This document shows, piece by piece, positions 9,972-64,000 of a DNA stretch of 64,000 nucleotides. Within the stretch, counting starts at the first letter, position 1; every line of letters starts with the position of its first letter. This DNA comes from Fimicolochytrium jonesii (taxonomy: Eukaryota). The notes under the pieces were generated by a model. That model was not told where the DNA came from. It was given only the letters and a program-made list of their open reading frames with translations, and searched no databases. A program made the translations under genes and the position numbers. Location of the stretch: positions 62,001-126,000 of the forward strand of contig NW_026515694.1 in assembly GCF_025526975.1 (NCBI RefSeq), in the 5' to 3' direction.

Positions 9972-10185
9972 TGTAATATTGCTAGGTCCGTTGCCAGAGG
10001 CTAGCTCTGTCTCCGGTTTGATGTATTGAAAGAATTCTAGGGTTTCTACCCCCCGGGGGGCCGCCTGAAGGCTTTTCTTCCCTTCGGGAGTCACCCCAGA
10101 GCGTAGGACTCCAATATAATCTATGCTACACGTGATCTCATGCCCTACGCGCTTCCCCGCACTAAGGTGACATCTGCAGCACCTC
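9972..10185 (-). repeat. Family-C LTR, cut about 6 nt from its end by element A1
   Basis: Reverse complement of 36305-36523; lacks the terminal ATTACA. Confidence 0.88.
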
Positions 10186-15220: not shown

Positions 15221-15421
15221 GGCCACCCGAGCTCTCAGTGATACATTACATAAGGCGCCAAGCCTCACTGAAGCCACGCAAGCCCCACTGGCAGCCCATA
15301 TATAAAGCTGTCAGTCGAGCGGCCGCTGCGAAGAGCTTCTTACTTTTTTCTTCACTACAATATACTGCTCTCAGCCCTCTCAGAAGGGCCCAATATCGTC
15401 TACGTTTCCTCTGACGTTACA
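15221..15421 (+). repeat. 5'-truncated family-B LTR
   Basis: GGCCACCCGAGCTC...CTGACGTTACA matches the 3' three-quarters of 45960-46234. Confidence 0.88.
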
Positions 15422-15778
15422 TCTACTTCCCCACGACGAACTCTGAGGGGGGGGAAGCGGGAGACGAGTCCGTCATGGACAAGGGAGCCATCCTCATCCT
15501 GGTGGACTACTTATCCAGCCACGTAATCCTCCTCGAGACCCACGCCAATGTGACGGCAAAGGAACTCGCCCAGCTGTTCTTCGACCAGGCCTTGCGCATC
15601 ACGGGCATGTCCCACACGATCATCAGCGATTGGGACACCAAATGGACCGGCGCCTTTTGGAAGCACCTTCTGAAGTGCGCCGGCATAGAGCAGGAACTCT
15701 CGTCGGCACGACACAAACAGACCGACGGCAAGACGGAGAACGTCATCAAGACAATCAAGAAGATGATGGTCCCCTACC
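15422..15778 (+). pseudogene. Family-C integrase fragment
   Basis: Near-identical to 40873-41228 (MDKGA.LILVDYLSS...KKMMVPY). Confidence 0.88.
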
Positions 15779-18700
15779 TGTTAAGATCTCGACGACAGAG
15801 GCGGAAGCGAAGAAGAGAAGACAGAGCGAGAGCGATAGGCGACAAGAGATTGTATTGGCGAAACAAGAAACAAGAACTTGAACAGTAGATGAGAAGAACT
15901 GGTGTTGATCTGCTGGGGAGGAAGGGAATGGACGAAGAGGGGCCGGCTATTTATAGATAGGCAACCCAGCAGGCCAGAGAACAACAACAACAAGAGGGGA
16001 CTGGGGGGGCGCCAGCTATGCTCCTAGAGCGTGCGTGGCGAGCGTAGAGAGCATTGCTACAGCTGCTGGCTATGGAGAAGTAGTGGGGGATGTGGAGAAG
16101 CCGAGGGGGGATTGGCGAAATGAGAGGAGAGAGGAGGAGTGGTGATATTGCAGGAGGATTGGCGAAATGAGAGGGAGAGATGGGGAGTGGCATTGACATC
16201 GACATTGACACTGACATTGACACTGACATTGACATTGACATTGGCGTTTGACATTGGCGGTTGACATTGGCGGCTGTCAGTAGGTAAGCTTATGGTACGG
16301 GCGCGTCGTTCATAACATCACCCCTCTCTTTAGCGGCGGTGGCGGCGGCGTCGAGTTTGGTGTGGCCGCAGAGGAGGTGCTACGGGGACAGAGGAAGGCT
16401 TGTTGGGGTACGCGCTGTGGAAGTCCTGGAGGAGTGCGTCGGTATGGGTGAGGTGTTCCACGGGCTCCCAGGTGTTCTCGGAGTCAGGCCAGCCCTGCCA
16501 TTTGACCAAGTACTGGAGGCAAGGACAATGGATGCGAGAGTCAAGGATGGCTTCGACAACCCACTCTTCTTGACCCTCAACGGTTTCTGGGGGCAGGGGT
16601 TCGGGTTCGTGTCGTTCGGGGATGGTGAAGCGGGGTTCGAGGAGCGAGACATGGAAGACATCGTGGATTTTGTACGTAGGCGGGAGCTTGAGCCGGTAGG
16701 CGACGGGATTGATTTTTTCAACGATGGGGAATGGCCCAATCTTGCGATGGTCGAGTTTCTGAGAGGGCCGGGTTGTCTGGAGGTTTTTGCGGAGGAGCCA
16801 GACGTGGTCGCCAGGCTTGAAGTCCGGTCCAGGAATTCGTTTAGCGTCGGCGTAGCGCTTCATTTGATCTTGGCTTCCTTGAGCTCGAGGGCGAGCTGTT
16901 CATGGACTTCCCTGATTTGTTTAGCGCGGGCTTCAGCGGCGGGGTTGACGGATTCGGAGGTAGCAGAGGCCGCGAAACTGAAGCGGGGGTGGAGACCCTT
17001 GTTGGCGTAGAAGGGGGTGGTCTGGGAGGCGGACTGGTGGGTGTTGTTGTAGGCGAACTCGGCGGACGACAGAAGCTGTTTCCAGTTGTCCTGTTGGTGG
17101 TTGCAAAAGCATCGGAGATACTGCTCCAGGATCTGGTTGGTGCGTTCCGTCTGGCCATCGCTCTGGGGGTGGAAGGCCGAGGAGAGGTTGGCTTTTGCCC
17201 CAAGGAGTTCGAGAAGTCGACGCCAGAAACGGGACTTAAACTGGGGTCCTCGGTCAGAGATGATGTCGTCGGGGAGGCCGTGGAGACGGATGATATTGTG
17301 GAAGACTAGGTCGGCGGTGGACTCGGCGGATTCTGACTCGCTGCAGGCGATGAAGTGGGCCATCTTGGTGAGGCGACAGTTGACGTTCAGGATGGAGTCA
17401 GTACCCGTCCACGGGAGGCAGACCGGTGATAAAGTCCAGGGACCAAGATCCCAAGGGCGGGTAGGGATACTGTTGGGCTGGAGTAGGCCATATGGTTTGT
17501 GTCGACTGGATTTCGCTTGGCTACAGGTATCGCAGGACTTGACGTAGGCCTTGACGAAGCGCCACTGGCTGGGCCACCAGTAGTTGCGGGAGGCGAGTTC
17601 GAGCGTCTTGGACATCCCAAAGTGGCCGGCTAGGGATGTATCGTGCATGTCGTGGCAGACTTCAGCTCGGAGCTCGTTGGTGGGGACATAGACCAGGTTA
17701 TCGTGCAGCAGGATCCCATCTTCATCTGAGAACCGCTTGATACGATCTTGGGTTTCCTCGGTCCATTGGGCGAGGGGTATCTTGAGCTTTTCGCGAAGGG
17801 TCTTAGCGAGGGGATCAGAGGCCTGGGCGGCCTTAATCTTGTCAAGCAGCGTGGTATCCATGGGTGTGAGGTAGGCCGCGGCGAGTCGAAGGCGTTTGGG
17901 AGTCAAAATTGTGGTTGCCTGGGAGCGGAACGCTTCTTCCCCCTTTTTTAGCTCATGTTCGGAGCGTCGGGAGAGGGCATCGGCTTGGTGCTGCTGGGAA
18001 CCGGGGCGATAGGTAATGACAAAGTCAAAATCCGAGAAGAATATCGACCAGCGGGCTTGGCGGCGGTTCAGGGTGCAGGTGGTCATGAAGTACTGAAGGT
18101 TTTTATGGTCGGAGTAAACGGTGATCTTGTGACGGGCGCCAATGAGATGGTGTCGCCACTGGGCAAAGGAGTCTTGGATGGCCAGAAGTTCCTTGTCGTA
18201 GATCTCGTAGTTGATCTCTTCGGCCGTGAATTTGCGAGAGTGGAAGGCCACGGGGTGGAGCTGATTGTCCTGGTCAGGTTGGAGGAGAACTGCGCCAAGA
18301 GCGAAGTCGGAGGCGTCAGTTTCGACGACGAAGGGCTTCTCTGGGTCAGGGTGAGCAAGGATGGGGGCGGTGGTGAATGCTTTCTTCAGGTTCTCGAAGG
18401 CGGTGTTTGCGGCGGGTGTCCAGGCGTACGGGATGTCTTTCCGGGTCAGGGCTGTGAGCGGGGTAGCGATCTTGGAATAACCTTGGATGAATCGGCGATA
18501 GAAGTTGGCAAAGCCGAGGAACCGCTGGACGCCTTTGACAGTCTTGGGAGGTTCCCAATCCGTGATGGCAGCGATCTTCTTGGGGTCCATCTGGATGCCT
18601 TTCTCGGAGATGATGAAGCCTAGGAACTCAACGGATTCGCGGTTGAATTCGCACTTCTCTGGTTTGGCGTACAACCCATGCTGTCGGAGGCGGGACAAGA

Positions 18701-25546: not shown

Positions 25547-26261
25547 GCTAATCATCAGTACACCCATGAGTGGTGCGCACGCATGAGGCTCTAGCGCTGA
25601 TATAACCTTCTTTCCCATGCAGCCCTTCTCACTGACGGAGGAATTCACCGCTGTCTACTGTCTGCATTCATTGACACCCGATACAATCGAGATTCGGGAT
25701 GCGCAATCCAAGAAGTTGTCCGGTGTGTACGATTTGCCGTCAATCACTCTCAAAGGAGGCCGCCGAATGATCGCCGAAAATAAGCTGGCCAATGTTGTTT
25801 ACAAGTTTGGGACAGCTAATCCCGGTGCTCTTCCGCGCAACATCTACCCGGTGAGTGAACAAACAACGATGAAAATTGCAACTTTCCGATGTTGACAATC
25901 GTAATGGGCAATGCCCAGAAAGTGGGGTGCACGTGGAGCCACGTGACCCATTTGTGTTGCTGGCACGGCCGTAGTATCTAAAGGCCTTCAAGTTCGTTCT
26001 TTTCTTCCTCCTCACTGGAAAAGCAACGCAGATAGCAATTCAATCAGCTACCCACCCTCCCTTGTTTGCGATGGATGTATGTATATGCGGTGTTGCTAAT
26101 ATATGCGTGCGCGGTTTTGCCCGCGAAGCCGTTCCGTCGGGAGCCACCTATTGGGGTGGTCACCAGGCGGAACGGCAAACCCCAGCCATGGATTGTAAAT
26201 TTCCTTCCCTCAGGCGTGGTTGATGAATCTTACCAAGCCAAATGAACCCTATATCATCGAT

Positions 26262-28567
26262 ATGGCGACCACCGAAATCTACACCGCGATCGCGAGCGTG
26301 GAATACCCCGATACTTGCAATGTAAGAAAGGTAGCTTGAAAGCTAATAGCTCTTTCCGGCCCGGAACTAACGTCTCGAATCATCTTGATTTTTGAAATAC
26401 CCTCAGTCCATCGCGAGATCGGGCTCAAACCAGACTTCAAAGACCCTTCGCGGACATCAACCCGGACAAGAAGGTCAAGCCCTCCTGCAGTCCGTTTACG
26501 AGTTCCCGAAGACGTCGACCTCCTCGTCGGCACACTGGCAGAGGAGCCGAGACCAGACGGTACGGGTTCGGTGACACGGCGTTCCACATCTTCATCCTCA
26601 TGGCTTCCCGGCGATTGTTTCACGGATCGTTTCTTGACTGACGACTACCAAACCCGAGAATATACACCGCGGAGGGTATCAAGTACATCGAGACACAGGG
26701 CAACTTCAAGGGGTTGATCTCACGGCACTTCCCAGAGCTGGCCTCTTCTGTGACTCCGTCGACAACCCTTTCAAGGCCGTGGAAGCTTAGTTCTTGGACG
26801 GAGACTTCCGCGGAGTAGTATAGCAGATTCTTGACCTTTTGACCGATTTGCGGGTCGCATAGCACATTTCTAGTACCCTGGCTATAAACATATGACTGGC
26901 ATTGTGAAAACTGATTACCTAGCACTGTGTCCATCATAGTGTGTTCCCTTTTTTGAGATGTCTTCCCAGTGAGCGACGCGCGGATCTGCCGGCGAGAGTC
27001 GCGCATGAGTTCTTCGCAGCTTTCGGCAGGGAATCAGCATTGGCCTACCACCCACCCAACCCCGCCTACTTCAACGTCAAGAGTCTTAGCGAGCCTCTCA
27101 AAGTGCTTGCACTCCCCCACCAACCGGCCGTCGGTCCGTATGTTCAATGGGACCCCTTTCTACCGTGCAGCATACGTTGCTTTTCGACCTTCTCGACCTG
27201 CTACACAAAGAGGATGACCTCAGACCGCTTCACTACACAGTGTGCGGCAACAAGGGAGGCAGAAAGTATAAGCGGGAGCTCATCAAGGCCATTGTTGAAG
27301 AGGAGGATAACGTGAAGGCTTTGGTCGAGAGAAAACAGGTCCGGACGGACGACCTCAACCATGTGGTCGAACGGTACACTGGACGCAAAAAGGGAAATCA
27401 AGCAGAAGCCCAAAGGGCCTTTTGCGCGCTGTTTGGTATGCGGGGTTCCTTTTACCACTTTAGGAGTCGCTCTATCGCTATATGAATTCCTTATTTTATA
27501 TGATATGCAGAAAAGTCAGGGTTCAAAGGTCCCCGTTTGCAAGACAAGTATGAGTTCCCGTCCGTGTCGGACATCGAAAGAGCGAGTTCTGCTATCCGAC
27601 GAAAGCATTCTTGATAAAGGCTTTCCCAATGGAAGACCTTCGAGGCTTTTGCCGCGATCCCTCTGTTGAGGACGCTCGAGTGGCCGATACCTTGATAGCG
27701 GACAAAGTTCAGCATGAAGGAGTTTATTTGCCTGATCTCGTTCGCGGGTGTATGCTGTTGGAGATTCCGTTCGACCGAGACATGGCCCGACACCGGGAAT
27801 GGTCCCACGACGAGCTTGAAGAGAGAATAGAGGATGCGCTGCGAGTTGTCGTTATGGAAAGGGGGTTTTCCACGCCATACGCAGGTGGCAAAAAGAAGGT
27901 CGGTTTTTCCTTGTTTTTCCGGACACTTATCCTCGCGAAACTAAATCTCATTGTAGGACCCCGTCGAATGCATAGACTTGACGTTTGAAGATATAGGTGT
28001 GTGATGAAAAAAACTGTTATGCGAAGAAATAGGAGCGGTTGCTCACAAGTTCTCTCCAGCCGGTGGGAAAAGGAAGCGGACAGCGGGCGATAATGAGAGT
28101 AAAGTTTTGAGAGTTTTCCTCAGCAAACTCACCAATGGGTTACGGTTGGGGATGGACGAAGAGAAGAAGTCGAAACAAGTAAAAAAACAGAGCAAGAAAC
28201 AAGACGGAGGCTTCTGCGTACGTTTACGAATCCGGAGATTTGTTGCGCCGCTTGTCGATTCCCGACACAGGACTAAATCTTCCTATAGACTACAGCTCAG
28301 TTTCGGCGCCGGTTGACGAAAGCCGGCCTCCGACTGTTACCAGACCAAGACGTCTTACACATCATTGCATCATCAAATGGGGGTGCAGACCACGTCGACA
28401 ACTACCATTGGCTCGGCAACCGGGTTCTCGACATTCAGATGGGAAATAAGACCGATCACATCTATTGCTATCTTGCCGGGCAAGTGATGGCGCGGGCGGC
28501 GGTCAAGATCTCGAAGAAGCACGGAAAACAGGACAGGCATGAAGTACCAAGGGGACGACGCCGATAA
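26262..28567 (+). pseudogene. Decayed, probably intron-containing gene ending in an HNH-like nuclease motif
   Basis: Protein-like ORF pieces at 27147, 27611 and 28313. The last has DVLHIIASSNGGADHVDNY...GNK, an H..GG..N HNH pattern. Stops and frameshifts; the 5' boundary is uncertain. Confidence 0.45.
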
Positions 28568-29843
28568 ACTTCATATAAAAGGTGAAGAGGTTTTCCGAAG
28601 AGCTGCTGCCGACGCCAGAGATAAAAAGCGGCAAAATCTCGGTGCCGCTTGAGTCGAGCAGAGGGTAGAGGGGCTCATCGCCGAGCAAAGGAGCCATCCT
28701 TCCCTTGGAACACTGTTCTGCTGTTACCTTGGACTCATATGCAAGATTCCGTTTCTTGGATTAATGTAGCGTTAGATCTTAGGAGTGGCATAATGAATAT
28801 GCCGGACGAAAACTGCAGAGACTTACCTTCCGTCTCCGGCTTTTATGTAGTTCGCGCTTGTTGATTTCGTTCCGCGCGGATGTCACGCAGCGCAGCGGCA
28901 ACGGTTAACTTCCAGTAGAAGACCGTGCGCATGCATAGCATCACCGCACCGCACCTTACTGCACATGTACATAGTGGGAATGTAAGATCGGCTCAATAAT
29001 GCATACAAAGCACAAATCCTGATGGGAGTCGTCTTTGCAACCTAGTACGTGACGCCATTCGCTTCTTTTTCAACGTTCAGTAGAACCATCCCATTCGATG
29101 ACCCGAGCCGGATACTGCAGATCCAGTTCCGAACCGCAGGCGTTGCCCGTCTTTGAGCTGATCGGCATTCTTGTTCATAGAGTAGGTGACCGAATGGTGA
29201 GAAAGGACTCGGACGGACTTTGGATGATGAGAGAGGCGACGTTTGAGTCCCTCCCCGGTTCCCAACGCGTGATTCATGTCATGACAAAGACGCGTCAAGG
29301 CCGTTGTGCATCCATCATCATTGTACCAGGTCTCCCGAAGTCCACAATCCACAACCCGGCGGAACTATCTATCTTGAGCGTTTCCGTGATGCATCTCCTG
29401 CGTTTCTCCTGTCTCGCTGTTCTAATGCCTCCTGCTTCGTTTTGAGGAACATGAAAGGTGGAACCGCCGGATATTAAAACGAACCGACTTCCGCCCCCGT
29501 TTGGCGCCAGCGGTGGCTCGAGTTCAATCGTTGTCATCTCGAGAGCGCGTGCTGGTGGCAGCGCTTGAATGAGATGGATTGGATGGCCTCGACTCCTATG
29601 ATTCATTTCTGTTCAGAAATGTTTGTAGATTCACGTTCTTTTTTGGTTTTCATTGTTCTTGGGCCTGCTATAGACGATTTGTGTAGAAGCAATTGGATTA
29701 AGATGGCGTAGTATTTACCTACATATCCTCAGTTATGTTATCAAATAACAAACTCGGCTAGTGAACAAGAGTAGTATCTACAGCAGATGCAATTTCAGAT
29801 TTGTTGTAATGAACAGCAAACGCAACCTACGCTACGAGCTACA

Positions 29844-30314
29844 CTACAAGATAACACAATTAACCTTAACCCGCGGCAGCAAGGGGGGTATTGGATGTCT
29901 AACACTCTCAACCCTCTCAACCACAACCCCAACAACAGCTAACAGCCCCAAACACACCACCGCGACCAGCAACCCGCCCATGAAATCCACGATCTGCTGA
30001 TCTCGCCATATCAACAGGGACATCTCCCACACGGTGCGGCCGAGGATCCAGTACTGCACTGCAAAGTAAAGGAGGTAGACGCCCACAATGCTTGTGGTCA
30101 AGACGTCGAAGGCACGGTGTAATCGCGGCCGAAGCCACAGCACCGCCACATGTGCCTTGACTTTGGGCCAGATCAGTGCGTTCCTGCATTGTCGGTGGTT
30201 GCGTTTTGAGTCGTGGTGCAGGAAGAGGGCGGAGGCGATTGTGGCACCTGTTGCGAGGAGTTTGCCGTAGTGGGTGCGTATGAAATCGTAGAGGGGTTCG
30301 AGGGACTCGGGCAT
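29844..30314 (-). CDS. Hypothetical 156-aa membrane protein ending in CaaX (CVIL)
   Basis: ATG at 30314, 2-3 hydrophobic segments, C-terminal CVIL-stop. Overlaps the end of another ORF (30173-30676). Confidence 0.35.
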   Translation of the reverse strand: MPESLEPLYDFIRTHYGKLLATGATIASALFLHHDSKRNHRQCRNALIWPKVKAHVAVLWLRPRLHRAFDVLTTSIVGVYLLYFAVQYWILGRTVWEMSLLIWRDQQIVDFMGGLLVAVVCLGLLAVVGVVVERVESVRHPIPPLLPRVKVNCVIL

Positions 30315-32991
30315 TGGGCGCGGCGGTGGATGATGCGGCGGCGGAGGTTCTCGATGATGGCGCCTGATGTAGCATCTCTGACCTGCTTTGAAGTGGCTTC
30401 CCGGTTGTACTTCACATCGAGTATCAGAGATTGCGGATCGTCCGAGCGTGGTAGGATTCTGCGCGCGGTTTCCAGAGCTGGTGCGAGTGCACTTTTGACG
30501 AGTGTGTCTATTTCTTTCCTCAAGGCCGACTTGGAGATCATGCACAAGTCTTCGTCGCTGGCTAGGAGGGTGCGCAGGGAACGAATGATGACCGTGGTAG
30601 CAGGGCATCCTAGGGTCGCTACGTGACTCCGTGCCCAATCCACATATCTGACAAGACGCACAAAAGTGTCAGCCATCGGAAGGCGAGTGCGTCCTTAACA
30701 GTTCTTGCGCGCAAAGTTCTTTACCTTTCGATGTACAGACTCTTCTTATCAGCAAGCTGTTTCCCCAACAGCACAACACCAGCGCTCTGCTCCGGTTCCT
30801 GCCCCACTCTCGCCGCCAAAATCCGCATCGCTTCCGATATCCTCTTCACCCTGCTGTCCAGGTTATCGATAAAAGCATCGTACGTGATGGTTCGCGGATC
30901 CGGTGGAAGGAGCTGCGAGACCTGGCAGTCGAATATTTCCAGCAGGGGTTGGCGTGATGACCTCACTTTTGGCACGGGAGTTGTGCCGAGTTTACCATCA
31001 GTGACTCGGAGGGTCTCATCATGAACAAGGCTAACAGTTGCCAGCCCGGCTTCGGTCTTCGATTCCAGCGGCTCGGTGGCCCTCAACTCAATTTACCTCG
31101 AAAAGGTCATTTTCATTCGAGACAGTTTGAAGCCTGCCTTTCTGGAAACCAGTGATGCTGGCGTCCCCGCTGAAAGCCTTCATATCGCACTAACCAGCGG
31201 CGATTGAAGATGCGCATCCTCCAAGTACCGGAGCCCGGAGCTGTTTCTCGAATTGATCCCCGCCATGATTCTCGCGAGTAGATCTTGTTACTCGTAAGCA
31301 ACATTCCCTAAGCTAGCCGACAACGTTTCGTGGGGCGCTCAGGTACCGGTTCAGCCGACTTCCTAGGCCGTCTGCGCAAGATGGGTTCGACCAAAGGGCC
31401 GCTTGAAGCGACGGCAGGAATGCCGATGTCAGCTTCCAGCTCTTCAGTTTCGCAAGCGGACGAATCGCGGCTCCAACGGCTTACCCTGGGTTGTTTGGGC
31501 AGTGGGGCCGGTGGCGCTATGACTCCGGTCGTAGGTATCTCAGCCTCCAGGTCTCGCCCTGAACGGCGGGTCGGGGCTTGGCCTATGGCTTCTACCGGGC
31601 GGAGGACAACGTCCTCCACATCCTCCTCTATTCTAGCACATTTGCGAACTCATAACGCCTCGGGCGACCTTTTAGCCTTGCGCTTAGTCCCTCTCGGGAC
31701 CCTCCACCGTCAGATCCACAGCTTTCGGAAGAGTGGGAAAGTCAGGAGGAGTCGGTTGGGGAACAGGCACTTTTGGAGGATCATCGTCCCTGCCGACGGC
31801 TGCTAACCTCCTCCTTGCCCCTATGTCGTCCCATATAACTCTCGCCTTCTTCTTGTCTTGAGCGGTGTACAAAGTGCTGCTGCCGGCTCGCTTCTTTCCC
31901 TGGTTGAAGACTGGCACGGGAGGTGGCTCGTACTTTCGGAACTCGGCGTGTGGGCGTAGGAGCTGGAACGGAGACGAAGGTTGCGTTCTGATCTAGTATG
32001 TCAAAGATCTCATTTCTCTGGCCAGTCCGATCGCTTAGGACCACCGCGTCACGGGGGCTCACAGGTTGAGAAGGCTGCGGTGAGGGCGTGGTGTCACATA
32101 CACCTCCATGGGAACTTCAGCCGTTCGGCCAGGGAACGTTCCGGGCATAACATAGTCTCCTTTTCGGCGCGGGGAACTTGGGCGAGCGGTCAACAACTCC
32201 GGTCGCGACGCCGACTCGATGCGTGCCGTCCATTGGATCTACGCGGATCTCCATCTCTCGCGTCTGAATAACAGGATTGACATTTTTGGTGTTCAGATTT
32301 AGCTTCTCCTCGGGAACCTCCTTCCCCCCACTGGGAGCCTGGAACTGAAGGCCAGTTTGAGCCGTAACTTCAGCGGGGTAGTTGTACACGTAACCTGTCT
32401 GATCAGGGATCGGCAACCCGCTTGTAGAGGTAGAGGGTACCAACGGAGATCGCGGTCCCCGCTCGCCTCGAAGGCGTGATGCGATCCAGGAAACGTTCGC
32501 GTTCACGGTAATCCTTCTCTGCTTTGAGGAACTCCTGGGCATCTTTGTAGGCTTTCGATTGAAGCCTGGCTGCATTGAAGCTTCAACGCTTCAACGGAGG
32601 AGATGACCGTCTCATGTTTTGGAGCGGTGTAGTTCTGTTTAGTAGCGAGGTCCTTCCGGTGGATGTTCCTGTTCCACGCGTACTTCACATTGGGGACACC
32701 CGAACGCGTCGAGATGACCGTAGTCAAGCGCCTGGCCAATCTGATGGCGTTGGAGGTTCGTAATCGGCTTGGGCCGATTGATACCTTGGGCTTCGAGAGG
32801 GTTTGCCCTGTAGATGGCCGCCATTCTCGCACTTTCTAAAGCGATGAGAAAAAATTCTATCCATCATGCTAAGACAGCGAAACCCTCGATGCCCAGTTTC
32901 CTTCAGAACGTCAAGACTAAAGCCCGTCATCTGTTCACGAACGCGCCGTCGTATCTGAACAAGGCGAGAGGGTTCGCTACCCAAGTCGTGA

Positions 32992-33267
32992 TGTCGGGGA
33001 TATCTCATCTTCACTTGTATTTCATATATATATCTCTTTACTTCTACTTGATCCAAGACCCAGGCTGGCCACCCGAGCTCTCGGTGATACATGACATAAG
33101 GCGCCAAGCCTCACTGAAGCCACGCAAGCCCCACTGGCAGCCCATATATAAAGCTGTCAGTCGAGCGGCCGCTGCGATGAGCTTCTTACTTTTTTCTTCA
33201 CTACAATACACTGCTCTCAGCCCTCTCAGAAGGGCCCAATGTTGTCTACATTTCCTCTGACGATACA
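32992..33267 (+). repeat. Family-B LTR (no PBS, no TSD)
   Basis: TGTCGGGG...GATACA; flanks CGTGA / CCAGG; abuts B pol on the minus strand. Confidence 0.9.
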
Positions 33268-35467: not shown

Positions 35468-35968
35468 CTAGTAGAGCGGTTAGGTTCGGCGCCCATCTGG
35501 TAATCTCCTCCTTTTATCTTGTTTATTGCTGAGGCCTTCACGCCGTTGTTCATATTGGTACAACTGCGTCCTGTAACATCTAAAACCTTTGTTGACCATT
35601 TGTATGAACTCTTTCTTGATTTGTCCATCCAATACTTTTTTGAAATTGTCGTAGGTCAGAAGATCGACATTCTGTTTCTTATTGGTCCCCTTGCAGCTCA
35701 CCTTGCTGCGCTTCTTGCTCCGTAGGAACTGCTCTTCATCTCCAACCACAAAGTACATCTTGGGTGCCAGGGCAATCAGCGCTGTCCCGGTGAACTCTAT
35801 CTTGAATAGCCCCGGGGTCTTCTCGTTGTATTCATCCCCATCGGCAACCAACCATAACCCGCGTTCCTGTAGAAACTGCTCCTTGAGTTCTGGCCTCACC
35901 AGGGAATCAATGGTGTCACCGGCAAGCGCCATATACATGCTATCTGTGTCCATCTGAAGCAGCTCAGA
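35468..35968 (-). pseudogene. C-terminal fragment of a protein-primed family-B DNA polymerase (Polinton/Maverick-like)
   Basis: ELLQMDTDSMY (motif C), KTPGLFKIEF, ALAPKMY, KVSCKG and DKRRRLPDG..T*PLY*. Cut at 35969 by a C LTR. Confidence 0.82.
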
Positions 35969-36187
35969 TGTAATAATGCTAGGTCCGTTGCCAGAGGCTA
36001 GCTCTGTCTCCGCTCGATGTATTGAAAGAATTCTAGAGTTTCTACCTCCTGGGGCGCCGCCCAAAGGCTTTTCTTCCCTTCAGGAGTCACCCCAGAGCGT
36101 AGGACTCCAATATAATCTATGCTACCCGTGATCTCATGCCCTACGCGCTTCCCCGCACTAAGGTGACACCTGCAGCATCTCATTACA
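35969..36187 (-). repeat. Family-C 3' LTR with adjacent PPT (36188-36195)
   Basis: Reverse complement of 43724-43940, plus the upstream GTGACACTTCGCTCTAAGGGGGG. Confidence 0.9.
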
Positions 36188-39100
36188 CCCCCCTTAGAGC
36201 GAAGTGTCACATCACACATCACACACGACGTCCGCTTAGGGACACCTTTGCCTCAAACACACAAAGGGGACAGCCTAAAGAAGGCTCTCAAGCGACAGCG
36301 AGTGTGTAATGAGGTGCTGCAGGTGTCACCTTAGAGCGGGGAAGCGCGTAGGGCATGAGATCACGGGTAGCATAGATTATATTGGAGTCCTACGCTCTGG
36401 GGTGACTCCCGAAGGGAAGAAAAGCCTTCGGGCGGCGTCCCGGGAGGTAGAAACTCTAGAATTCTTTCAATACATCGAGCGGAGACAGAGCTAGCCTCTG
36501 GCAACGGACCTAGCATTATTACATGGTAGCACCATCCTTAAAGATCTCTCCGGCAACCTACGATGAGCAACTCTCAGGCGGGTGCTAATACCGCCGTCAG
36601 CTCTGCGATAGTTAACAATGACCGCTTAAAGCTTGATCCATTTGAACACCCGCATCGAAGGGCGCAACGGCTCGACAGCGACCAACGCCAAGGCAACGGC
36701 CCCGCAGAGCGTAACCGCCCCTTGCACAGGCGCAGGGGGTCACCCCCGTGGTCGCCACCTGGAAGGAGGCACTCCAGCTCACGCTCACCTTGTCGACGTC
36801 GAAGCCCGGACCCTCGACGCCAGAATCGGACGCCAGAGCGATACAGGCGCGGACGACGAGGTCGCAGGAGCATCTCCCCACCCCGTCGAAGGAGCCGCTG
36901 AGTAAGCCGCTACCGCAGCCGCTCCCCGGCGAGGACCCGAAGCCGCTCCCCCATGCGGCGCACGAGCCGTACCCCAGCCCGACAAGAGAACGGACAGGCA
37001 ACAATCCTCCAAATCCTAGCCCAGCTGGCCAACACCAACGCCCAACTCCAGCAGCAATTCGAGCGCCTGGAGAGGGACTGCCCAGATGACAGCCCCTTCG
37101 CTGGAGTACGGGTTAGCCGCGAGGACCATTTGGCGGCTAGCGAAGAGCGTAAGCGCAAGGCGGCCACCGAGAAGGAGTTCCGAACCACCTTGGCTAAGAT
37201 GCTGACCAAGTTTGACGGTAAGGCTAATGGTAAAGACATGGTCGCCAAACTGGACGAGTTCGTCGACGCCCACCTACGCTATCTGGAAGTTACCGAATTC
37301 AGAACAGAGGACGGGGATGTGAAACACTTCGTAGCCCACTTGTTGGGAGACGCCGCTGAGTGGTGGAAGCTCGAGGCTCGCTCCGGAGAGCCTTCCGCCA
37401 CCCAGGAACGGTTCCTGAAGGCACTCAGGCGCAGGTTCTACCCCGCCAACCTCCGTAATTCGGTCGAGGCGAAACTGGCCGCCCTGAAGTTCAAAGACAG
37501 CATGTCCGACTACGTTCCGGCCTTCAACGTACTGACCACACAGATCGTTATCCTCCCCAAAAAGGAACATCTCACTCCGCGACAGGAACGTGAGTACTTC
37601 CTGAACGGGCTGACCTTCCACCAGGTCGGACGTCGCATCCGTGAGCAGTGCTACCAGTTCATCCTACAACAGGGCAATGAGGACGAAGACATCCCCATCA
37701 AGACCCTTCAGGGAGCCGCCCAGAGGGCCTTCCGCATCGGGGGTTATGCCGACGGGATTGCCCACATTTCGGAGGACGGCAAACGGGTCCAACCCGGAAC
37801 GGCCACTCCGGCCCAGGCTTGCGACAAGCGCGATACGCCCCCCACCTTCAACTCCAACCGAGTACCCCTTGGGAAGGAGAGGAAAACTCAGCGAGGCGAA
37901 TGTCACACTTGCGGCAGCAAGGACCACTACGCCCGGGCGTGCCCTAAGAACCCGGACGGACTCAAGATCTCGGCGGCGCCCGCCAAGGCCTTCAATGATG
38001 ACAACGACAAGTTTCATTTGGCCGCGGAGGAGCCCCCGAGCCGCGCATACTCCATCGACAGTCAGGATTTTCTGCCCAGGGCCTGACCGCCTGCAGCGCC
38101 TCAGCGTCCAGATAACCCGAGGGACCTACCGGACCCCGACTGCAGGACACCATTCCGGAATACCGCCCCACCCCCATCATCGACAAGCTCACGTTCAAGG
38201 TCCATGGACGTGTCGGCGGCATCTTCTGCCGCACCCTCATAGACACTGGTTGCAATACCATGCTCATTAGCGACTCATTTGCCCAACGCCATGATCTTAA
38301 CACGTACGACTGTCCCATGCCCCTTGAGGTGCGCTGGGGTGACAAAGCCGGATCATACGGCACCACGCGGATGATTTGTGCCAACCTCTCCGTCTTCACG
38401 GAGGAATGAATACCTCATAAGACCCCTCGGGTCCCGTTTGTCGTGGCCCCGATCCGCGCGGATGTTATCCTAGGGCTACCCTACATCTTGGACCTTGACC
38501 TCATACGCTTATGGCGCGACAATGGGTTCCCGGCGCTTCAATTTGAGGCTAACGCAACCGTACTAACTTTCCGAGCTAAACCTACCACCCGCCGATGGCA
38601 ACAACCCAGCGCTTGCGCGGCCCGGTTACTCGAACCTCATACGGGCCCTCACCCCCGCCGTTTCTACCCAAAGCGCGCGGCCTTAAATGAGGAGGGCTTC
38701 CTCACGGCCAAACAATTCAAGCGAGGAATCAAGAGGAATAAGGCCACCGAGGTCTATACCGCATGGGTCTCACGCACAGACACGGAGGTGGACCTGGCCA
38801 CAGACGACACCCTCACGGACGTCGCCGAAGCAGAGGCTAACTTCGTTCGCACGGTCGAGGCAAAGAAATGTGCGATCATTGCGGACCGAAAGGCAACGGA
38901 CACCCCTCCGGATACCACCCGGGGGATCCACTCGCATCGGTCGCCCCCGACCACCCTCTTCGCCCGACGTTGGAACAGTTTACAGATACCCTCTTCACCG
39001 AACAGACCGGCCTCCCGCCGGACCGCGACGACGACAACTTCAGCATCAACTTGAAGCCCGGCTCCAAGCCTGTCATGCTCCCACTCCGCCACTTGACCCC

Positions 39101-42100
39101 CGACGAACTCGACGAGCTACGGCAGCAACTCGAGCGCCTATCATCCCGCGGGTGGATCTCCCACTTTAAGAGCCCCTGGGGGGCACCCATACTGTTTGCC
39201 CCAAAGAAGGACGGTGGCCTCCGCTGCTGCATCGACTACCGGGCCCCTCAACAAGATGACCCATAAGGACGCCACGCCCCCTCCCAAACCTCAACGACCT
39301 TCGGGACCGCCTCGTCGGCATGAAGGTCTTCACCGCTATCGACATCCGCGATGCCTACCACTGCATCCTCATGCGGGAGGAAGACCATGAGAAGACTGCC
39401 TTCCAGACGCGCTTCGGCCACTTCCAGTACAACGTACTGCCCTTCGGGCTGACGAACGCCCCCGCGACGTTCCAACGCCTCATGAACAAACTCCTGGGTG
39501 ACAAGTACGATTCATACCTCATCTCTTACCTCGATGACATCCTTATTTTCAGCACCGACATGGACCCACACATCGGGCATGTCACTGATGTGCTCAAGAC
39601 CCTCTCGGCTCACGGCCTTCACGGTAAACCATCCAAATGTCAGTGGGCAGTGGACCAGGTCAAGTTCTGCGGGCACATGGTGGGTAAGGATGGCCTTTCC
39701 ATCGCCCCGTTCAAGGTCAAGGCTGTCCGCGCTCGACCCGAACCCACCAGCGCCCTCGAGCTCCTCTCCTTCATGGGGCTAGTCAACTATGTCAAGGAAT
39801 ACATTCCGCATTATACTGACACAGCCCTCCCACTGACCAACCTTCAATCCGGCACCCGCCCGTGGCAGTGGGGCGCCAAGGAACAAGCAGCCTTCAACAC
39901 CATCAAGGCGCTCGTCGCCGATGCCCCTTGCCGGGCGTTCTTCGACCCCGATAAGTTCCCCCTACGTCTTCTCATGGCTGGATCGTCAGGGCACGGACGG
40001 CGACTTTCCCATGCTGAACCCACTGCCCACCATGAAAAAGGGCCCCAATAACCTTCCGCGCCTCCGCGTCATCTCATATTACTCACGCAAAATGGCTCCG
40101 GCCGACACCCGATACCCGGTGCACTAACAGGAGCTCCTCGCGTTGAACAAAGTGATCCGCGCTAACCGCCATCACCTCATCGGTCGCCAATTCCGTGCAT
40201 TCGTCGACCATGAATCCCTCATATACCTCCAGAATCAGCCTCATCTCTCCCGGCGCCAGGCCGGATGGGTGGAGTTCCTTCAGGACTACGACTTCACTAT
40301 CGAATACCTCCCCGGCGAGTTCAATCACATCGCCGACATACTCAGCCGCACACCACGGTACGCCCCGAAGTGCGCCAGCTGTCAGATGAACGTCGAAGTG
40401 TTCTCCATTGTCACCGGGACACCTCTACCGGACATCACCGGCCGCCTCCCTACCGACACCAAGTGGCTCACTGCACTTGGCGATGACATGTTCTGCAAGG
40501 ACACCCTCGCCCACCTGCAGACCACCATGACAAACCCTGATGACCCCTCTACCCTCTCGGGTTTTGCGCGCCGCCTCACGCGTGACGACCGCGGCTTTGT
40601 TTTGTAGCATGGCCGCTGCTCCGTCCCCGAGGGCCTTCGGGGCCCCCTCCTCAGGTTCTATCATGACTCCCTGGCCAACGGCGGCCACTCAGGTGTCCAG
40701 CGCACCGGCGCCAAACTCCTCGCGCTCTACTACTGGCCCCTCCTCAAGCGCGAGGTCCACCAGTACGTCCGGACTTGTCCCGACTGCCAACGCAACAAGC
40801 AGGCTTCCAACTTCGGGCTCCTACGCAGCATTCCGGTCCCCGACGAGCGCTGGCGTTGCGTCGGCTTGGACATCTACTTCCCCATGACAAACTCTAAGGG
40901 GGGCGAAGCGGGAGACGAGTCCGTCATGGACAAGGGAGCCGTCCTCATCCTGGTGGACTACTTATCCAGCCGCGTAATCCTCCTCGAGACCCATGCCAAG
41001 GCAACGGCAAAGGAACTCGCCCAGCTGTTCTTTGACCAGGCCTTCCGCATCACGGGCATGCCCCACACGATCATCAGCGATTGGGACACCAAATGGACCG
41101 GCGCCTTTTGGAAGAACCTCCTGAAGTGCGCCGGCGTAGAGCAGGAACTCTCGTCGGAACGACACCAACAGACCGACGGCAAGACGGAGAATGTCATCAA
41201 GACAATCAAGAAGATGATGGTCCCCTACCTGAACTACACCGGCTCGAACTGGCGCGAGATGCTTCCCCTCCTTGAGTACACCTACAACAGGACGTCCCAG
41301 ACCTCCACGGGCATGTCACCGTACGAGATCGACATCGGGTACATCCCGAAGGTACCAGACCAATGGGGTACCAGCGACCCAACAGAGCAACTGAAACAGG
41401 CCCATCGAAAGTGCATTGAGGAGCGCATGCAGCAACTGACCGAGGTGAGCCGCATCGTTCAGCACAGACTCCGAGAGGCCCAGGACAGGCAGGCAAGATA
41501 CTACCACAGGAACAAGAATACGGATGCGTTCGTAGTAGGCAACCAGGTCCTGCTGAACCGCGAAGGCATCCAGATCAAGGGGATCTCGGCCCGAAACAAG
41601 AAGCTGTCCGCGCTGTGGATCGGGCCCTTCACCGTCAGCGGAAAAGGGCTCCACCCGGATACCTACAAGCTGGAGCTCTCCCACGAGTTCAGTGGACTAC
41701 ACCCGGTGTTCCATGTCAACATCCTACGCGGGTACAACCCTCCGGAGAACGGCCCATACCAAAAAGTGGACGCGCCACCCCCCCCGGAGGAAGTCAACGG
41801 CAAACTCGAACACCGAGTTGAAGACATCCTCGATTCCAAGTGGGTACGCAACACCGAGATGTTCCTGGTCAGATGGGCCGGCTTCGACGTGTCCCAGAAC
41901 ACCTGGGAGCCACTCCGACACGTCTGTAACACCTCGGCCCACAAGCGATATGTCCGAAAGCAAGCCGTCAAACGCCAGGAGACTTGGGAGACCAAGGCGA
42001 AGGAGAGAGCGGCAGTCTCTCGTCGCCGTAAACGTATCTGAACCTTGTACATACATCAAAACAGAGTTTCTACTGTCCGAAATGATCATTACCATTACGG

Positions 42101-42104
42101 ACTC

Positions 42105-42532
42105 ATGCGGGCGGGCACTAGTACCAAGGCCGATGATGCGGGCGGGTACATTGTACCAGGGCCTATGATGCGGGCGGGTACGTAGTACCAGGACCTATGA
42201 TGCGGGCGGGTACGAGGTACCAGGGCCTATGCGAGCGGGCAAGCGAGGTGTCAGGGCTCATGCGGGCAGGTATGCAATACCAAGGCCTAAGATGCGGGCG
42301 GGTACGAGGTACCAGGGCCCATGCGAGCGGGCAAGCGAGGTGTCAGGGCTCATGCGGGCGGGTATGCAATACCAAGGCCTAAGATGCGGGCCAGTACGAG
42401 GTACCAGGGCCTATGCGAGCGGGCAAGCGATGTGTCAGGGTTCATGTGGGCGGGTATGCAAGACCAAGGCCCAAGATGCGGGCAGGTACAAGGTACCAGG
42501 GCCTATGCAAGCGGGTGCGAGGCACCAGGGCT
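42105..42532 (+). repeat. Tandem array: ~30-bp monomers grading into a 92-bp three-subunit higher-order repeat
   Basis: ATGCGGGCGGG...ACCAGGGCCT monomers; higher-order unit starts at 42200, 42292, 42384 and 42476. Confidence 0.9.
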
Positions 42533-42622
42533 CAGAACGATCGGTGAAGTACCAAAGGGGAATGCTCCGAAGAGATCAAATTCAACAAAATATATACAAG
42601 AAAGAAGAACGATGGCGCCAGG

Positions 42623-43380
42623 CTAAATACCAGCCTGTTTGGCGAGAGACCACTGGCATCGTGTGCCGTGGCAGGCGGTCCTCATGCCACAACGCAGCGG
42701 GACAAACTGCTGGACGTTCATCTGGCTAAAGGGAACGCGTCACGTCAACGGCGGGACCTGTTGAAAATTCCCAACTGTTGTACTTACGCGCGGACATGCC
42801 CCATACACTGGATGTGGTCGCAGGGGAAGACCCGCACGTCCTAGGCCAGACAATCGCAGGCGGGCCACACACAGGTGCAGGGTAGCGCCTGGCAGAAGAG
42901 CAGTGTTTCGCACTCTTCCCCGAAACCGTTGATGTAGCCGCACGTAAACTCACCGACGGTCGTGTCGGTCTGTCGGAAAGAGACGTGAGCTGTCAGTCAC
43001 CTCACAGGAACCACCCATAACATGCGGTTCCTTACGGTGTCATCACAGAGCGGGAGGATGCAAGGCCGGCATATAACGTGCTGGCACGCCGAGAGGAACA
43101 CCTTGCGGGGGCGGTACGTTTTGCAGTTCCAACACGTCGGTCGGGCTGGTGGAGCCGGGGGCTCCGGGGTACTGTCCGAGTGCACCTTGGGGGTGTCCTG
43201 AGATAAAATTGGTCAAACCACGTAAGTTTGGTCAATTGGGCGCCCTCGTGGACTCACCACTCGCTGTTGCTTGAGAGCCTTCTTTAGGCTATCCCCTTCG
43301 GTGGGGCCCTCACCCACCCGCTTCTTGCCCGATGACGGGCCGGCAGCGGTGGGCTTGGCAGGAGGAGCTACGCTGGCCAT
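42623..43380 (-). CDS. Antisense four-exon tandem-RING zinc-finger gene inside element C (~189 aa; one in-frame TAG at 42841-42843)
   Basis: Exons 43380-43258, 43197-43036, 42969-42788 and 42725-42623. GT-AG introns of 60, 66 and 62 nt. GCCATGG start context and an upstream TATAAAAG. Two C-x-H-x2-C-x2-C/H RING-like units. Confidence 0.75.
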
Positions 43381-43940
43381 GGCGAAGAGGAGAACGGCAA
43401 CGGTGAGAGGTTACGAGATTGGGAACAAAAGATATAAGGTCCGAGGACTGGTGGAAAGGTGCCAAGGGGACTACTGCCTTCCTTTTATATGCCGCAGGGA
43501 CAAGGACCATGGCGCCCCACGACCAACTGCGGCCGAATCATCTCTACCTCATATCGGCGTGGATCTGATTGCCATCATGGTGACCACCGGTGACGCCAGC
43601 TGCTCCAGTAGAGCCTTCCGCGTTCCTCATGGCCGACACCTGTGTCAGCTCCACATCAAGCAACAGCGGGGAGCGCTTGACAGGCGCGGTCGGTGTCGGA
43701 GTGACACTTCGCTCTAAGGGGGGTGTAATGAGATGCTGCAGGTGTCACCTTAGTGCGGGGAAGCGCGTAGGGCATGAGATCACGTGTAGCATAGATTATA
43801 TTGGAGTCCTACGCTCTGGGGTGACTCCTGAAGGGAAAAGCCTTCGGGCGGCGCCCCGGGAAGTAGAAACTCTAGAATTCTTTCAATACATCGAAGCGGA
43901 GACAGAGCTAGCCTCTGGCAACGGGCCTAGCAATATTACA

Positions 43941-45959
43941 TTGACGCACTGTGTGATGTGTGTGTTTGAGGCAAAGGCGTCCCTAAGCGGACGTCGTGTG
44001 TGATGTGTGTGTGTAAGGTCGGTTTTTGCGTCGCCGCGCGTGATGTGATGTAGTTTACGTCGCTATTGTCAGCGGTGTGACTGATAGTGAGCGGTTCTTG
44101 CGGCGTGGCGCGTGTGATGTGATATGAGATGCTCTATGCTGTTCGTGCCCATATCCACAAAGATTGTGGGTGAGCTTTTCGTCATCGTTTGTAGGCAGGC
44201 GTGTAGCAAAGTGCGGATTCGGGTTCCCACGTGGGGTGAGGATAAGCGAGCCATTGGACTAGAAGATTTCGTATGGCGCGTCGCTCGTCGATGATATCTT
44301 CTACAACCCATTCAGGTTGTCCGCGTTCTTTGATTGATGGAGGAGGTTGTGGAACTGCACATTGCGGATATTGCTCTTCGCGATGTGGTCGTAAAATATC
44401 GACGTGAAAGACGGGCCAGATGCCGCTGATCTCCGATGGTGATAAATCGAGTTCATAGGTGTCAGGATGTGCTCCCAGTTCAATGATTTTGAATGGTGTG
44501 ATCCACATAGCTGAGTATCGAAGTCCTCTTCGAGCGCCTACTTCTAGGTTGATTCCTTGTCGATTTGTATCAACAAGGTCGCCAATTTTGTATGCGATTG
44601 GCGTTCGACCTTTGTCGTGTTGATGTGCAACTTGATCTTGCGATCTCTGAAGGTTTTCGCGTACGATACAGGCGATATCTTCCTGCCCTTTCTTGAAGAC
44701 TTCGATTTCGTTTCGATCTACAGCTTGAAGTTTGAGTTCCTGGCCTTTGAGTGTTGGATTCCAACCCGGAAGGATTGGAGAGCGTCTGAGATCTATTTCC
44801 AATGGCAATAAACCTTCATATTCCTCCCTCGGAGTAGTGTTGTATGCGAATTTGATTAAAGGCAGTAGTTTCTTCCAATTGCTTTTGTCGGAGTTGAGGT
44901 ATTGCTCCCAAATCCTTTTCAGGGTTTGGATGGCTCGCTCAACTTTGCCGTCAGTTTGCTGATGACGAGCCATAGCAAATTTGTGTTTGACACCGAGGAG
45001 AATATCGAATGCGAGGAAGAAGTCGGAAAGTGGGCAAGGTTCGCGATCCGTAACGAAGACTTTTGGCGTACCGACATGTTTCCAAACATGATCTAAAAAG
45101 ACTTGGGCTAGTTAGCGTCCAGTAATTGTCTTCTTGATTGGTGTCAGAATCACACAACCGGAGAGGTAATCAATGCAGACAAGACAAGAGTTTGTTTCAT
45201 CTACTTCGAAAATGTCGAATCCGATTGTGTGCCATCTTCGAAAAGGTATAGGAAGAGGTCGAAGAAATCCGTGTTGACGATGACCAGGTTTGAATTGTCG
45301 ACAGGATTTGCAAGTTCCAATGTATTTGATGACGTCGGAGCGTACGGTAGGCCAGTAGTAGTCCGTAAGAATTCTCGCGAGGATCTTCTTAACACCAAGA
45401 TGTCCTCCGGTGGCGAGTTCGTCAGGGAATTTCCGCAAAATCTTTGGGCAAATGTCTTCAGGAACGTATAGACGTCCTTCGTGTCGTACTAATCCATTTT
45501 CGAACGTATAACGGAGTTCTTTCGAAGTTTTCTCATGTTGAGGCTTTCGAGAAATTTCATCAAGATAATCCGAATATGGATCTTTGCATAGCGCTTTTTT
45601 CCATTCTTCTTCTGAGCAGGTAGGGGAATTTTGTGGATCCTCTGTCGTAGCATTGGAGGAAGGTTCGTTGACAAGCATGTTGCTGATCTGCGTATGCATG
45701 TTGAGGCGTCGTTGACAATCTACACACCGAGGCGCATAGATTGGATTGCGGGAGAGCATGTCGGCAATATGATTCCATTGTCCAGGGAAATACTGGATGT
45801 CAAAATCATACTCTTGTAGCTTCTCCACCCAATTGGCTTGTCTTCTGCTCAAATGGGGTTGCGTTTGAATGAATTCGAGTGCCTTGTGATCGCTAAAACA
45901 TCGGAAGTAACGACCGATGAGATATGGTCGATTGGCCCAACATCTTGACAAGAGCTAAT
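43941..45959 (-). pseudogene. Family B 3' part: RNH-INT-chromodomain and CA-rich 3' untranslated region
   Basis: GGHLG..YYWP..CKSC, RHQQTDGKVER and WVVEDIIDER..VQWLAYPHPTWEP. Confidence 0.88.
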
Positions 45960-61342: not shown

Positions 61343-62296
61343 ATGGCCGCAAGCAACACCGAAGCCGAAGCCGATGCCCTGGTTATATCGACCAACCCCG
61401 AGCACCCCGCTAACCTCATCCCGGAGCTCTGCAGGTTGTTTTGGACGTTGGGCTGGGTTACAGGGACAGGGTACGTCTATTGGCAGTCGTCTTTTCTCAT
61501 AGCGGTGGTTCCCTGTTAACCCACCACATTACCTTCCCATTACAGAGGAGGCATCACGATAAAAGAGGGCGAAACCATCTACATTGCCCCATCGGGAGTC
61601 CAGAAGGAGCGCATGGAGCCTCATCACCTCTATGTCCTCACCCTATCCCTTCCCCGCCGCGTCCTCCGCTCCCCACCGCCATCTCTAGGGTTCAAACCAT
61701 CACAATGCACACCTCTATTTGCAAATGCATATGATATGCGTGGGGCAGGAGCATGCATCCACACGCACTCCCAGAACGCCGTCATGGCAACGTTGCTGTA
61801 TCCCGGGAAGGAGTTTGTGATAACACATCAGGAGATGATTAAGGGGATCAGGAGGGGGAGCTCGAAGGAGTCGTTTAGGTATTTTGATCGGCTGGTGGTG
61901 CCTATTGTAGAGAATACGGCGCAGGAGGAGGATTTGAAGGATCGGATGGCTAAGGTGCGTAGATGGACTATTGCGGTCACATCACTGAACGTATGCTGAT
62001 ACCTGGCAATATAGGCGATTGCGGACTATCCTGAAACAAATGCCGTTTTGGTGAGGAGGCATGGCGTCTATGTCTGGGGAGAGAACTGGCAAAAGGGTAA
62101 GTGGCATCGCACATGGCGTTCCGCAATGCTGAGTCCTGTATGCAGCGATAACCTCAAACATTTCTCGTCAGCCAAATCCATGACCGAATGCTACGACTAC
62201 CTGTTTGAGATTGCTGTGAAGATGAAGAGCGTAGGGCTGGACCCAACCCAAGTCCCAGATGATAGCGAATACCGTGACGTTTGCCAGCAGCATTAG
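61343..62296 (+). CDS. MDE1: Methylthioribulose-1-phosphate dehydratase (methionine salvage)
   Basis: [54 protein letters not shown] and [10 protein letters not shown]; introns. Confidence 0.93.
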
Positions 62297-62618: not shown

Positions 62619-63484
62619 TTAAAGGAACCATGAGAATGCCTCCTTGAAGGCCTTCTCCGCATCCGTCTCAACGATCGTGCCGTGGCATGGGACTGTTGGA
62701 GGTATAAGCAAGCAAAATCAGGGATCTGATTCAAGAGGAATGAGCCCTTAGATCGGGATCACTTACTAATGCGATCAAATTTCCAGTTGTCAAGAACATG
62801 CTTGACATCGCTCTTCATCTGCTCGGTATCCGCGTTCATCAGGTAGCGGTTGAAGAGCTTATGCGCCCCCGCGTCTGGTTTCAAGAACAGCTGCATGGCG
62901 CCATTGAAGATATCACCGGCAGTCCCGCTTGGCCCACCTTGCTCCTTCGGAAGCGGGAAATTGATCATCAAATCGGCAGTAAGGAGCGTCTTTGATGGGC
63001 GGTGCAAGTAAAGCGTGTCCTGGTTGCGTTGTCCGCTGAAATGGCGATAGCTGATCTCGTCTTCAAATCCGATGCGCTTTGGCGGGACAGCCGGTGCCGG
63101 GTTGGCGGCATCAATGGGTTTCACGCCCTCTACGATGACATCGAACTTGACATCATCCCTCTTTTCTTGAAGACCCGGAACACCGATGAGCACAGCGTCG
63201 GGCCACTTTTGCTTGTACTCTGCGGCATGGAGATGGTGGACGATGTTGGGGCACACGACGTATTTGACCTTGCCGAGTTTCTCCAGTTCGGCGAGTGTGG
63301 TCGTCCCGTTCGCATCGGTCGTGTCGCCGAGCGGCGTGGGTGAGACGACGAACAAGTCGCCGTTTTGCAGACGCACGGCGGTCATGCGCATGCCGACCGG
63401 CATGACCCCGCGGGTGACGAAGGATTTGGAGAACGTTGTGACGGCGTTGTCCAAGTGCCGGACGGTGGTGGTTTGGGTCGACAT
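62619..63484 (-). CDS. DUF4336-like metallo-beta-lactamase-fold protein, 2 exons
   Basis: GMRMTAVRLQNG, PNIVHHLH, HRPSKTLLTADL and WKFDRI|IPCHG...AFSWFL*. Confidence 0.8.
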
Positions 63485-64000
63485 GGTGGTTGAGAGCTTC
63501 TCGTATTCGAGGGTAATATCGAAGCGCTGTAAGGCGTACAGGTATGTGCAAGCAGGATGACGTTCAGGGTATGAAGAGAACAGGGCAATGCTTTGATATG
63601 TACAGGCTGTGAAAGGAGGGTAAGATGATCTCGATGGGTGCTTCGGAAAAAATTGCGAGAGGGTGAAACTCTGGGAGACTTTCTATGATGTCAACAGTGT
63701 CAACGCGTAAAACGGGTGGTATGTTCGTAACAGGTAAACAGCAATGATATATCTGAGGCTACAGTATTCCGGCCTTAGTGAAGTGATTTCTGAACGACAG
63801 CCCCCCAGAGCACTGCGGAAACAGCCATACGAAACTCAAGATGCCAGTAGCAAAAGCACACCTCGAAGAGGCTATCAAGTCCAAGCTGGAAGCCGAGCAC
63901 GTTGTAAGTCTCTGACGTGTAATTGCCGCATTTATTGCCTTTGCACTCTCGCTAAACCGTACCTTTCCCACCTTAGGACGTGATCGACACATCAAACGGC

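Follow-up and report, generated by a model that had tools for sequence, protein, structure and literature searches.

Open reading frames lying antisense between pol and the 3′ LTR are already known from LTR retrotransposons. One is brtn in Boty-like Ty3/gypsy elements of Botrytis cinerea and Sclerotinia (Zhao et al. 2011, as cited in PMC7264820 and PMC8365987), and the plant aORF-3R genes include Grande gene23 and the ORFs of RIRE2 and Retand TRP28 (PMC7264820, PMC11963269). Such antisense accessory genes are an open question, since their products hardly ever resemble proteins whose function is known (PMC7264820). Accessory cargo may also move between element classes, as in the extra ORFs of bdelloid rotifers, where the accessible part of PMC5408684 describes an esterase, an exonuclease or an env ORF3 among retroelements. 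A further described system is that of the Polinton-like MELD viruses, six genomes of which were assembled from one Powellomyces dataset; as far as the available text of PMC8502044 goes, polymerase B is a gene type that they carry, and oncoids, named for short motifs like those of tumour-virus oncogenes, are reported as recurring genes near PolB.

Here we describe a spliced gene of four exons that almost certainly exists; it runs opposite to gag-pol in the segment from pol to the 3′ LTR of an LTR retrotransposon (element C) in a 64-kb window, i.e., the whole 64,000-nucleotide stretch of DNA analyzed. In position, orientation, a putative promoter of its own and an adjoining tandem array, it resembles the antisense ORFs of the plant and Boty elements (PMC7264820, PMC11963269), whereas the cargo domains of the plant genes differ; Retand belongs to a non-chromovirus lineage, unlike element C, and neither "RING" nor "intron" occurs in PMC11963269. 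No sequence relationship to brtn was found, all matches being from Powellomyces; the gene here has four exons and two RING-like units, and its host is probably an early-diverging fungus. In contrast to the rotifer cargo, it is a spliced zinc-finger gene in antisense orientation, shared with a dsDNA virus. An env-like ORF3 would lie in sense orientation and encode a membrane protein; the product here is antisense, small and rich in cysteine and histidine. The antisense layout is thus already known from Botrytis brtn, but the RING cargo and the link to a virus were not found in print: a literature search, largely without subscription journals, returned neither an LTR element with an antisense gene for a RING protein nor an interpretation of the oncoid as a spliced gene.

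Architecture of element C and its antisense gene

Element C is a decayed Ty3/gypsy chromovirus. Its LTRs, primer site, purine tract, gag, reverse transcriptase and RNase H, in the order gag to reverse transcriptase–RNase H–integrase, are all present, which confirmed the preliminary description of an LTR retrotransposon with an integrase-chromodomain. The 5′ LTR (36305–36523, plus strand, TGTAAT...ATTACA) is followed by the primer-binding site from 36524. Gag-pol (36902–42041, plus strand) encodes capsid, reverse transcriptase, RNase H, integrase, SH3 and chromodomain, as judged by Pfam and by tblastn with relatives; the chromodomain at the integrase C-terminus matched PF00385 above the cut-off (E=4.6e-9), and the coding sequence is interrupted by internal stops and changes frame near 39950. 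The stretch from the pol stop to the antisense gene's 3′ end contains a tandem array of a 92-bp unit (42105–42534; 3.8 copies, subunits of about 31 bp), found in run X1 too. The polypurine tract (43716–43723, plus strand) adjoins the 3′ LTR (43724–43940, plus strand), which is identical to its partner at 208 of 216 aligned bases. No target-site duplication was found for the element (flanks CGAGTG versus TTGACG); the left flank is rearranged.

On the minus strand, a TATA box, TATAAAAG (43482–43489), recognized from the letters only, precedes a CT-rich leader and an ATG at 43380 in the context GCCATGG. Exon 1 (43258–43380) contributes the start codon, a low-complexity arm and two basic clusters that may act as a nuclear signal. 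It is followed by intron 1 (43198–43257; 60 nt, phase 0, GTGAGT..CTCAG), exon 2 (43036–43197), which carries the first six ligands of zinc unit 1, and intron 2 (42970–43035; 66 nt, phase 0, GTAAGG..CTGAC..ACAG). Exon 3 (42788–42969) completes zinc unit 1, carries most of unit 2 and contains a premature TAG at 42843–42841; beyond intron 3 (42726–42787; 62 nt, phase 2, GTAAGT..TTTAG), exon 4 (42623–42725) supplies the last ligand pair of unit 2 and the end stop at 42625–42623. The spliced product has 189 residues, interrupted by that one TAG. Each intron contains an in-frame stop if left unspliced (TGA, TGA and TAA, respectively). The promoter, start codon, intron ends, in-frame stops and spliced product all lie where the preliminary description had placed them.

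The introns are also distinct in composition, with a GC content of 48–53% against 59–65% in the exons. A donor–branch–acceptor pattern, composed after the introns were known and hence generous to them, matched three times in 43720–42560; of 3000 simulations under a first-order Markov model, 1 gave as many. Those introns of host genes elsewhere in the window that fit this pattern measure 60–71 nt. A six-frame scan of the 64-kb window for the motif C-x-H-x2-C-x2-C/H gave two occurrences, both within the antisense gene, of which the window contains a single full copy. An alternative acceptor for intron 3, 4 nt further on, was rejected because the exon-4 match would be lost. Intron-like matches in another family (46540, 46310, 46156 and their copies) were attributed to chance, having weak acceptors and lying within gag or an LTR, and a plus-strand ORF at 43226–43717 found no support.

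Several other features of the surroundings were recorded. At least four gypsy families are densely nested at 8500–56400 between host genes, which comprise an ABC transporter (1–3935), an ADP-ribosylglycohydrolase (about 6620–8180), a class II aldolase (61520–61996) and a DUF4336 gene (62762–63682); degenerate gene fragments occupy 25550–33000. Further C sequence is present as a 362-bp integrase piece (15419–15780, 95%) and a truncated LTR (9972–10185), the latter following another chromovirus integrase, as does element C at 43941. The primer-site start TGGTAGCACC is common to two different families, at 36524 and 46234, so both probably use the same tRNA primer. Within 43702–43760, the bases just 5′ of the purine tract and those that begin the 3′ LTR complement each other (GTGACAC/GTGTCAC, CTAAGG/CCTTAG), and a hairpin around the plus-strand primer site is possible. 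Rfam gave no match in 35–45 kb of the window.

Relatives in Powellomyces and a diverged copy in run X1

To find relatives, the read-through of exons 1–3, with X at stops, was searched against 1,835,955,588 protein representatives. Three matches were obtained at E≤0.001, all from Powellomyces. The best-scoring was DAC81638.1 (P0057; E=2.4e-23), the "oncoid" of the Polinton-like Powellomyces chytrid fungus MELD virus 1, annotated as a single unspliced ORF of 197 aa within a 21,205-bp dsDNA virus record (Starrett et al., PMC8502044). The other two, KAI8911323.1, whose cluster includes KAI8903067.1 (partial) and KAI8921334/5.1, and KAI8904226.1, come from Powellomyces hirtus. These five P. hirtus accessions lie on contigs that have four different lengths and are 91–94% alike where shared; one is partial and one loses the match midway. 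A profile search added no relatives (3 of 3451 candidates), a word-index search with the read-through protein gave 0 of 39 candidates, and neither phage records nor, for the RING proteins, PHROGs yielded a match. Five scans of viral contigs, with the integrase alignment, P0058, P0057, the polymerase remnant described below and alignment A3, found nothing.

The homologues fix all three intron positions and support a genuine spliced antisense gene, as had been proposed. The P. hirtus gene models have nothing that corresponds to translated introns 1 and 2 (intron 1 is absent from P0058, intron 2 from P0058 and P0061), and P0058 runs on past intron 3 into a C-terminal segment 47% identical to exon 4 over 30 aa. 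The virus oncoid, in contrast, has inserts at the places of introns 1 and 2, the second of 25 residues, and ends where intron 3 begins, like the unspliced frame of the window. Judged from the proteins, the three introns occupy the same positions in these relatives as in the window, and the published oncoid appears to be a read-through of a spliced four-exon gene, minus its last exon.

The window protein is 40–41% identical to the P. hirtus proteins and 42% to the virus (143 aligned residues), a true homologue with all shared zinc ligands; P. hirtus and virus proteins are 52–53% identical, and the P. hirtus copies 94% identical to each other. From the first zinc ligand on, P0058 retains 18 of the window protein's 22 cysteines and histidines, compared with 34 of its 99 remaining residues (Fisher p=7e-5), in support of the two zinc units proposed earlier.

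The window copy itself is dead, broken by one stop. Run X1 has a sense codon at the place of the premature TAG, which identifies the TAG as a lesion of the window copy, as previously suspected. The pieces from X1 are unlinked 151-bp contigs at depth 2; six of 134–151 bp over 41625–43134 show 46 differences in 885 bases (among the 8 of 17 pieces listed) and span the integrase end, the array and exons 2–3 at 92–97%. No long piece covers 36300–41600, a gap that proves nothing. Intron 2 carries a 1-nt deletion in X1. The exon differences listed comprise six amino-acid changes, one change at the stop and two silent ones, none at the 18 conserved ligands; six replacements against two silent changes give no selection signal. 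Among the 12 integrase differences listed, 8 are changed and 4 silent, and a dN/dS estimate from X1 was discarded because both copies look decayed. One host piece has 3 differences in 151 bases, indicating that the organism or a close relative is in X1. Element pieces differ by 5.2% (p=0.10 overall against that host piece; p=0.018 for the exon-3 piece alone), and the X1 pieces may represent an orthologous insertion in a related strain and not a paralogue.

Predicted fold of the two zinc units

Pfam RING families matched exon 2 and its homologues, all below cut-off (for exon 2, zf-RING_5, E=9.5e-5), and the best sequence match of solved structure was the PCGF5 RING (E=0.011). A six-row model of P0058 was usable for residues 56–111 only (pLDDT about 55–71). 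Its best structural neighbour reached Z 5.5 with an rmsd of 3.0 over 59 residues, and 22 titles among the best 50 neighbours name RING, E3 or ligase. Foldseek searches of PDB and of viral models gave no hit at E≤0.001; their top rows were RINGs nonetheless. A single-sequence fold of the read-through was discarded (mean pLDDT 35). The preliminary description had proposed a tandem RING: unit 1 does model as a RING, but unit 2 gave no confident model (pLDDT under 50). The predicted structure supports a RING fold for unit 1 with medium confidence, and one is likely for unit 2.

In unit 1, the eight C3HC4 ligands are conserved, and the hydrophobic helix position is kept as Leu in the window and in P. 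hirtus. Its last cysteine pair is C-x9-C in the window and C-x4-C in Powellomyces (P0057/P0058/P0061), not the C-x2-C of a canonical RING-HC, and Glu or Gly follows the eighth ligand in place of the linchpin Arg. According to the accessible part of PMC5462532, last-pair spacing and the linchpin residue define canonical RING-HC E3s. The same part describes, for RBR RING1 domains such as those of HHARI/Ariadne, a C3HC4 core with an extended last loop and no linchpin; the Powellomyces C-x4-C agrees with this extended loop II, whereas the window loop exceeds the quoted length of 2–4. The element C product differs from RBR proteins in being under 190 aa, with a unit 2 pattern of its own and no detected IBR or RING2 (no Pfam match at E≤1–10). 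That pattern, C-x4-C..C-x-H-x2-C-x2-H..C-x5-C, runs parallel to unit 1 and is kept in all full homologues. Units 1 and 2 are not significantly alike in sequence (530 of 5000 shuffles reach the score; hhalign probability 0.1). Beyond its eight ligands, unit 2 has two conserved Cys/His that could be catalytic.

On these sequence and model features, we lean towards a role of the product in the ubiquitin system. A less probable view, still to be taken seriously, accepts the same gene and vehicle but treats the product as an adaptor with zinc fingers, or as a decoy for E2s, that has no ligase activity and acts on element transcription, RNA or particle traffic. Arenavirus Z, a RING protein described as lacking ligase activity, is the pertinent precedent, and its chains rank 6, 22, 26 and 48 among the best 50 neighbours (Z 3.8–4.9), near the best E3 RINGs. 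The non-canonical last cysteine pair, the missing linchpin Arg and the lack of an IBR/RING2 Pfam match that could supply an RBR catalytic cysteine point the same way. Against it stand the structural neighbours, mostly E3 RINGs, the retained Leu of the helix position and the two additional Cys/His of unit 2, which might themselves be catalytic.

Vehicle and history of the gene

The antisense gene is probably carried by the C lineage. Its several copies in P. hirtus, nearly identical, scattered and in part broken, look like mobile cargo and not like a single host gene. The closest named organism among 55 integrase relatives of element C is also P. hirtus, and for each of the four nearest that were tested (P0002, P0003, P0005, P0040), family C gave the best fit among the elements of the window. 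This closeness may simply reflect kinship of the host to Powellomyces. Divergence from P. hirtus is of similar order for the zinc region (43–44%) and the integrase (47–50%), a comparison that assumes genes from the same elements. A metagenome scan with the integrase returned 63 loci at 20–33% identity, too distant to bear on family C; none contained the C-x-H-x2-C-x2-C/H motif, tblastn with the exons (best E 0.19) or with four homologues gave no match in any of them, and 15 of the 21 longest loci checked had at least 1.5 kb downstream.

A second copy of the exon-1 end had been offered as evidence that the gene belongs to the family. The 41-bp piece exists at 36264–36304 with both differences described for it, ends exactly at the exon-1/intron-1 boundary and abuts the 5′ LTR. 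As evidence of family membership, however, it is weak, since it sits in a mosaic (35969–36304) made of an inverted C LTR with its purine tract, a 56-bp match to 44013–43959 and the 41-bp match to the exon-1 end. The 56-bp piece is DNA from just outside the 3′ LTR of element C, with no other copy in the window. All pieces match 43258–44013 in one orientation, with junctions overlapping by 0–3 bases, so that the 41-bp copy may derive from this locus and is no independent proof; a local repair event would explain the segment as well as a second element does.

The inverted LTR of this mosaic cuts, at 35968, the 3′ end of a DNA polymerase B gene (35480–35968, minus strand; 162 aa, DTDS motif; phrog_1907 DNA polymerase, E=1.2e-4), and a T run and another retroelement come next. 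We take the remnant to be of the protein-primed type of family B; as a polymerase of Polinton/MELD type, it would be a sign of an endogenous DNA virus in the genome. In this genome, C elements have thus come into direct contact with viral DNA of that kind. The window copy does not share the setting reported for MELD oncoids: it lies inside an LTR element, and the only PolB sequence is this remnant, 7 kb away.

The same insertion raises the possibility that the virus oncoid belongs to a retrotransposon inserted into an integrated virus, with no gene exchange between virus and retrotransposon. We consider this rather doubtful, although retrotransposons nest in the endogenous virophages of Cafeteria, as the available text of PMC8547959 describes, and the Fig. 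5 legend of PMC8502044 gives Gag/protease-like genes for some element. That legend mentions no reverse transcriptase, oncoids are reported there as recurring near PolB, and the 21,205-bp record is presented as a virus genome.

Less probable again is that the gene is at home in chytrid MELD/Polinton-like viruses, the P. hirtus copies being endogenous viral ones, and that C acquired it once or in one sub-lineage. The oncoid is indeed the best-scoring relative, one Powellomyces dataset yielded six MELD genomes, the C LTR interrupts a polymerase B remnant 7 kb from the gene, and LTR elements are known to capture DNA-virus genes, as the accessible part of PMC5408684 records. Yet the P. hirtus models, at 52–53% to the virus and 94% to each other, were not copied from it; the gene neatly occupies the customary antisense position, complete with promoter and 3′ end and unaccompanied by other viral DNA; and three spliceosomal introns would point to a long nuclear history. 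Capture of a host gene by this single C copy, decaying with it while the virus made a separate capture, is very improbable: the introns and promoter are of host type and the one full copy and the X1 pieces could be a single insertion, but the search of 1.84 billion proteins gave no relative outside Powellomyces, P. hirtus has several scattered copies, nearly identical and in part broken, and captured genes are usually in sense orientation (PMC7264820).

Taken together, the explanation that we favour, by a modest degree and on sequence grounds, is that the four-exon antisense gene is an inherited accessory gene of a chromovirus lineage, whose product would be a small nuclear protein with two RING-like units acting on the ubiquitin machinery. 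Its own TATA promoter would produce a spliced mRNA opposite to the genomic RNA, of which the spliced P. hirtus gene models give an indirect indication, and the introns would survive retrotransposition, since it is the opposite strand that is packaged as RNA. Unit 1 may bind an E2 as an RBR RING1 does, and unit 2 a partner or substrate, with the effect that a host restriction or silencing factor would be blunted; an anti-silencing role specifically can be put forward only tentatively. The gene might have passed between the lineage of element C and a Polinton-like virus of these fungi, a transfer eased by insertion of C into viral DNA.

With a recognizable predicted fold and intact natural homologues in a culturable fungus, the element C gene is open to direct assay of E2 binding and ubiquitin transfer. 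The MELD homologue with identical intron positions suggests either exchange between a retrotransposon and a Polinton-like virus or a retrotransposon hidden in a published virus genome, and in both cases the oncoid annotation needs correction to a spliced four-exon gene. More speculatively, and on present evidence improbably, a chytrid chromovirus and a Polinton-like dsDNA virus would share a portable tandem-RING effector of the ubiquitin system, moved with its three introns intact and disarming host defence against both.
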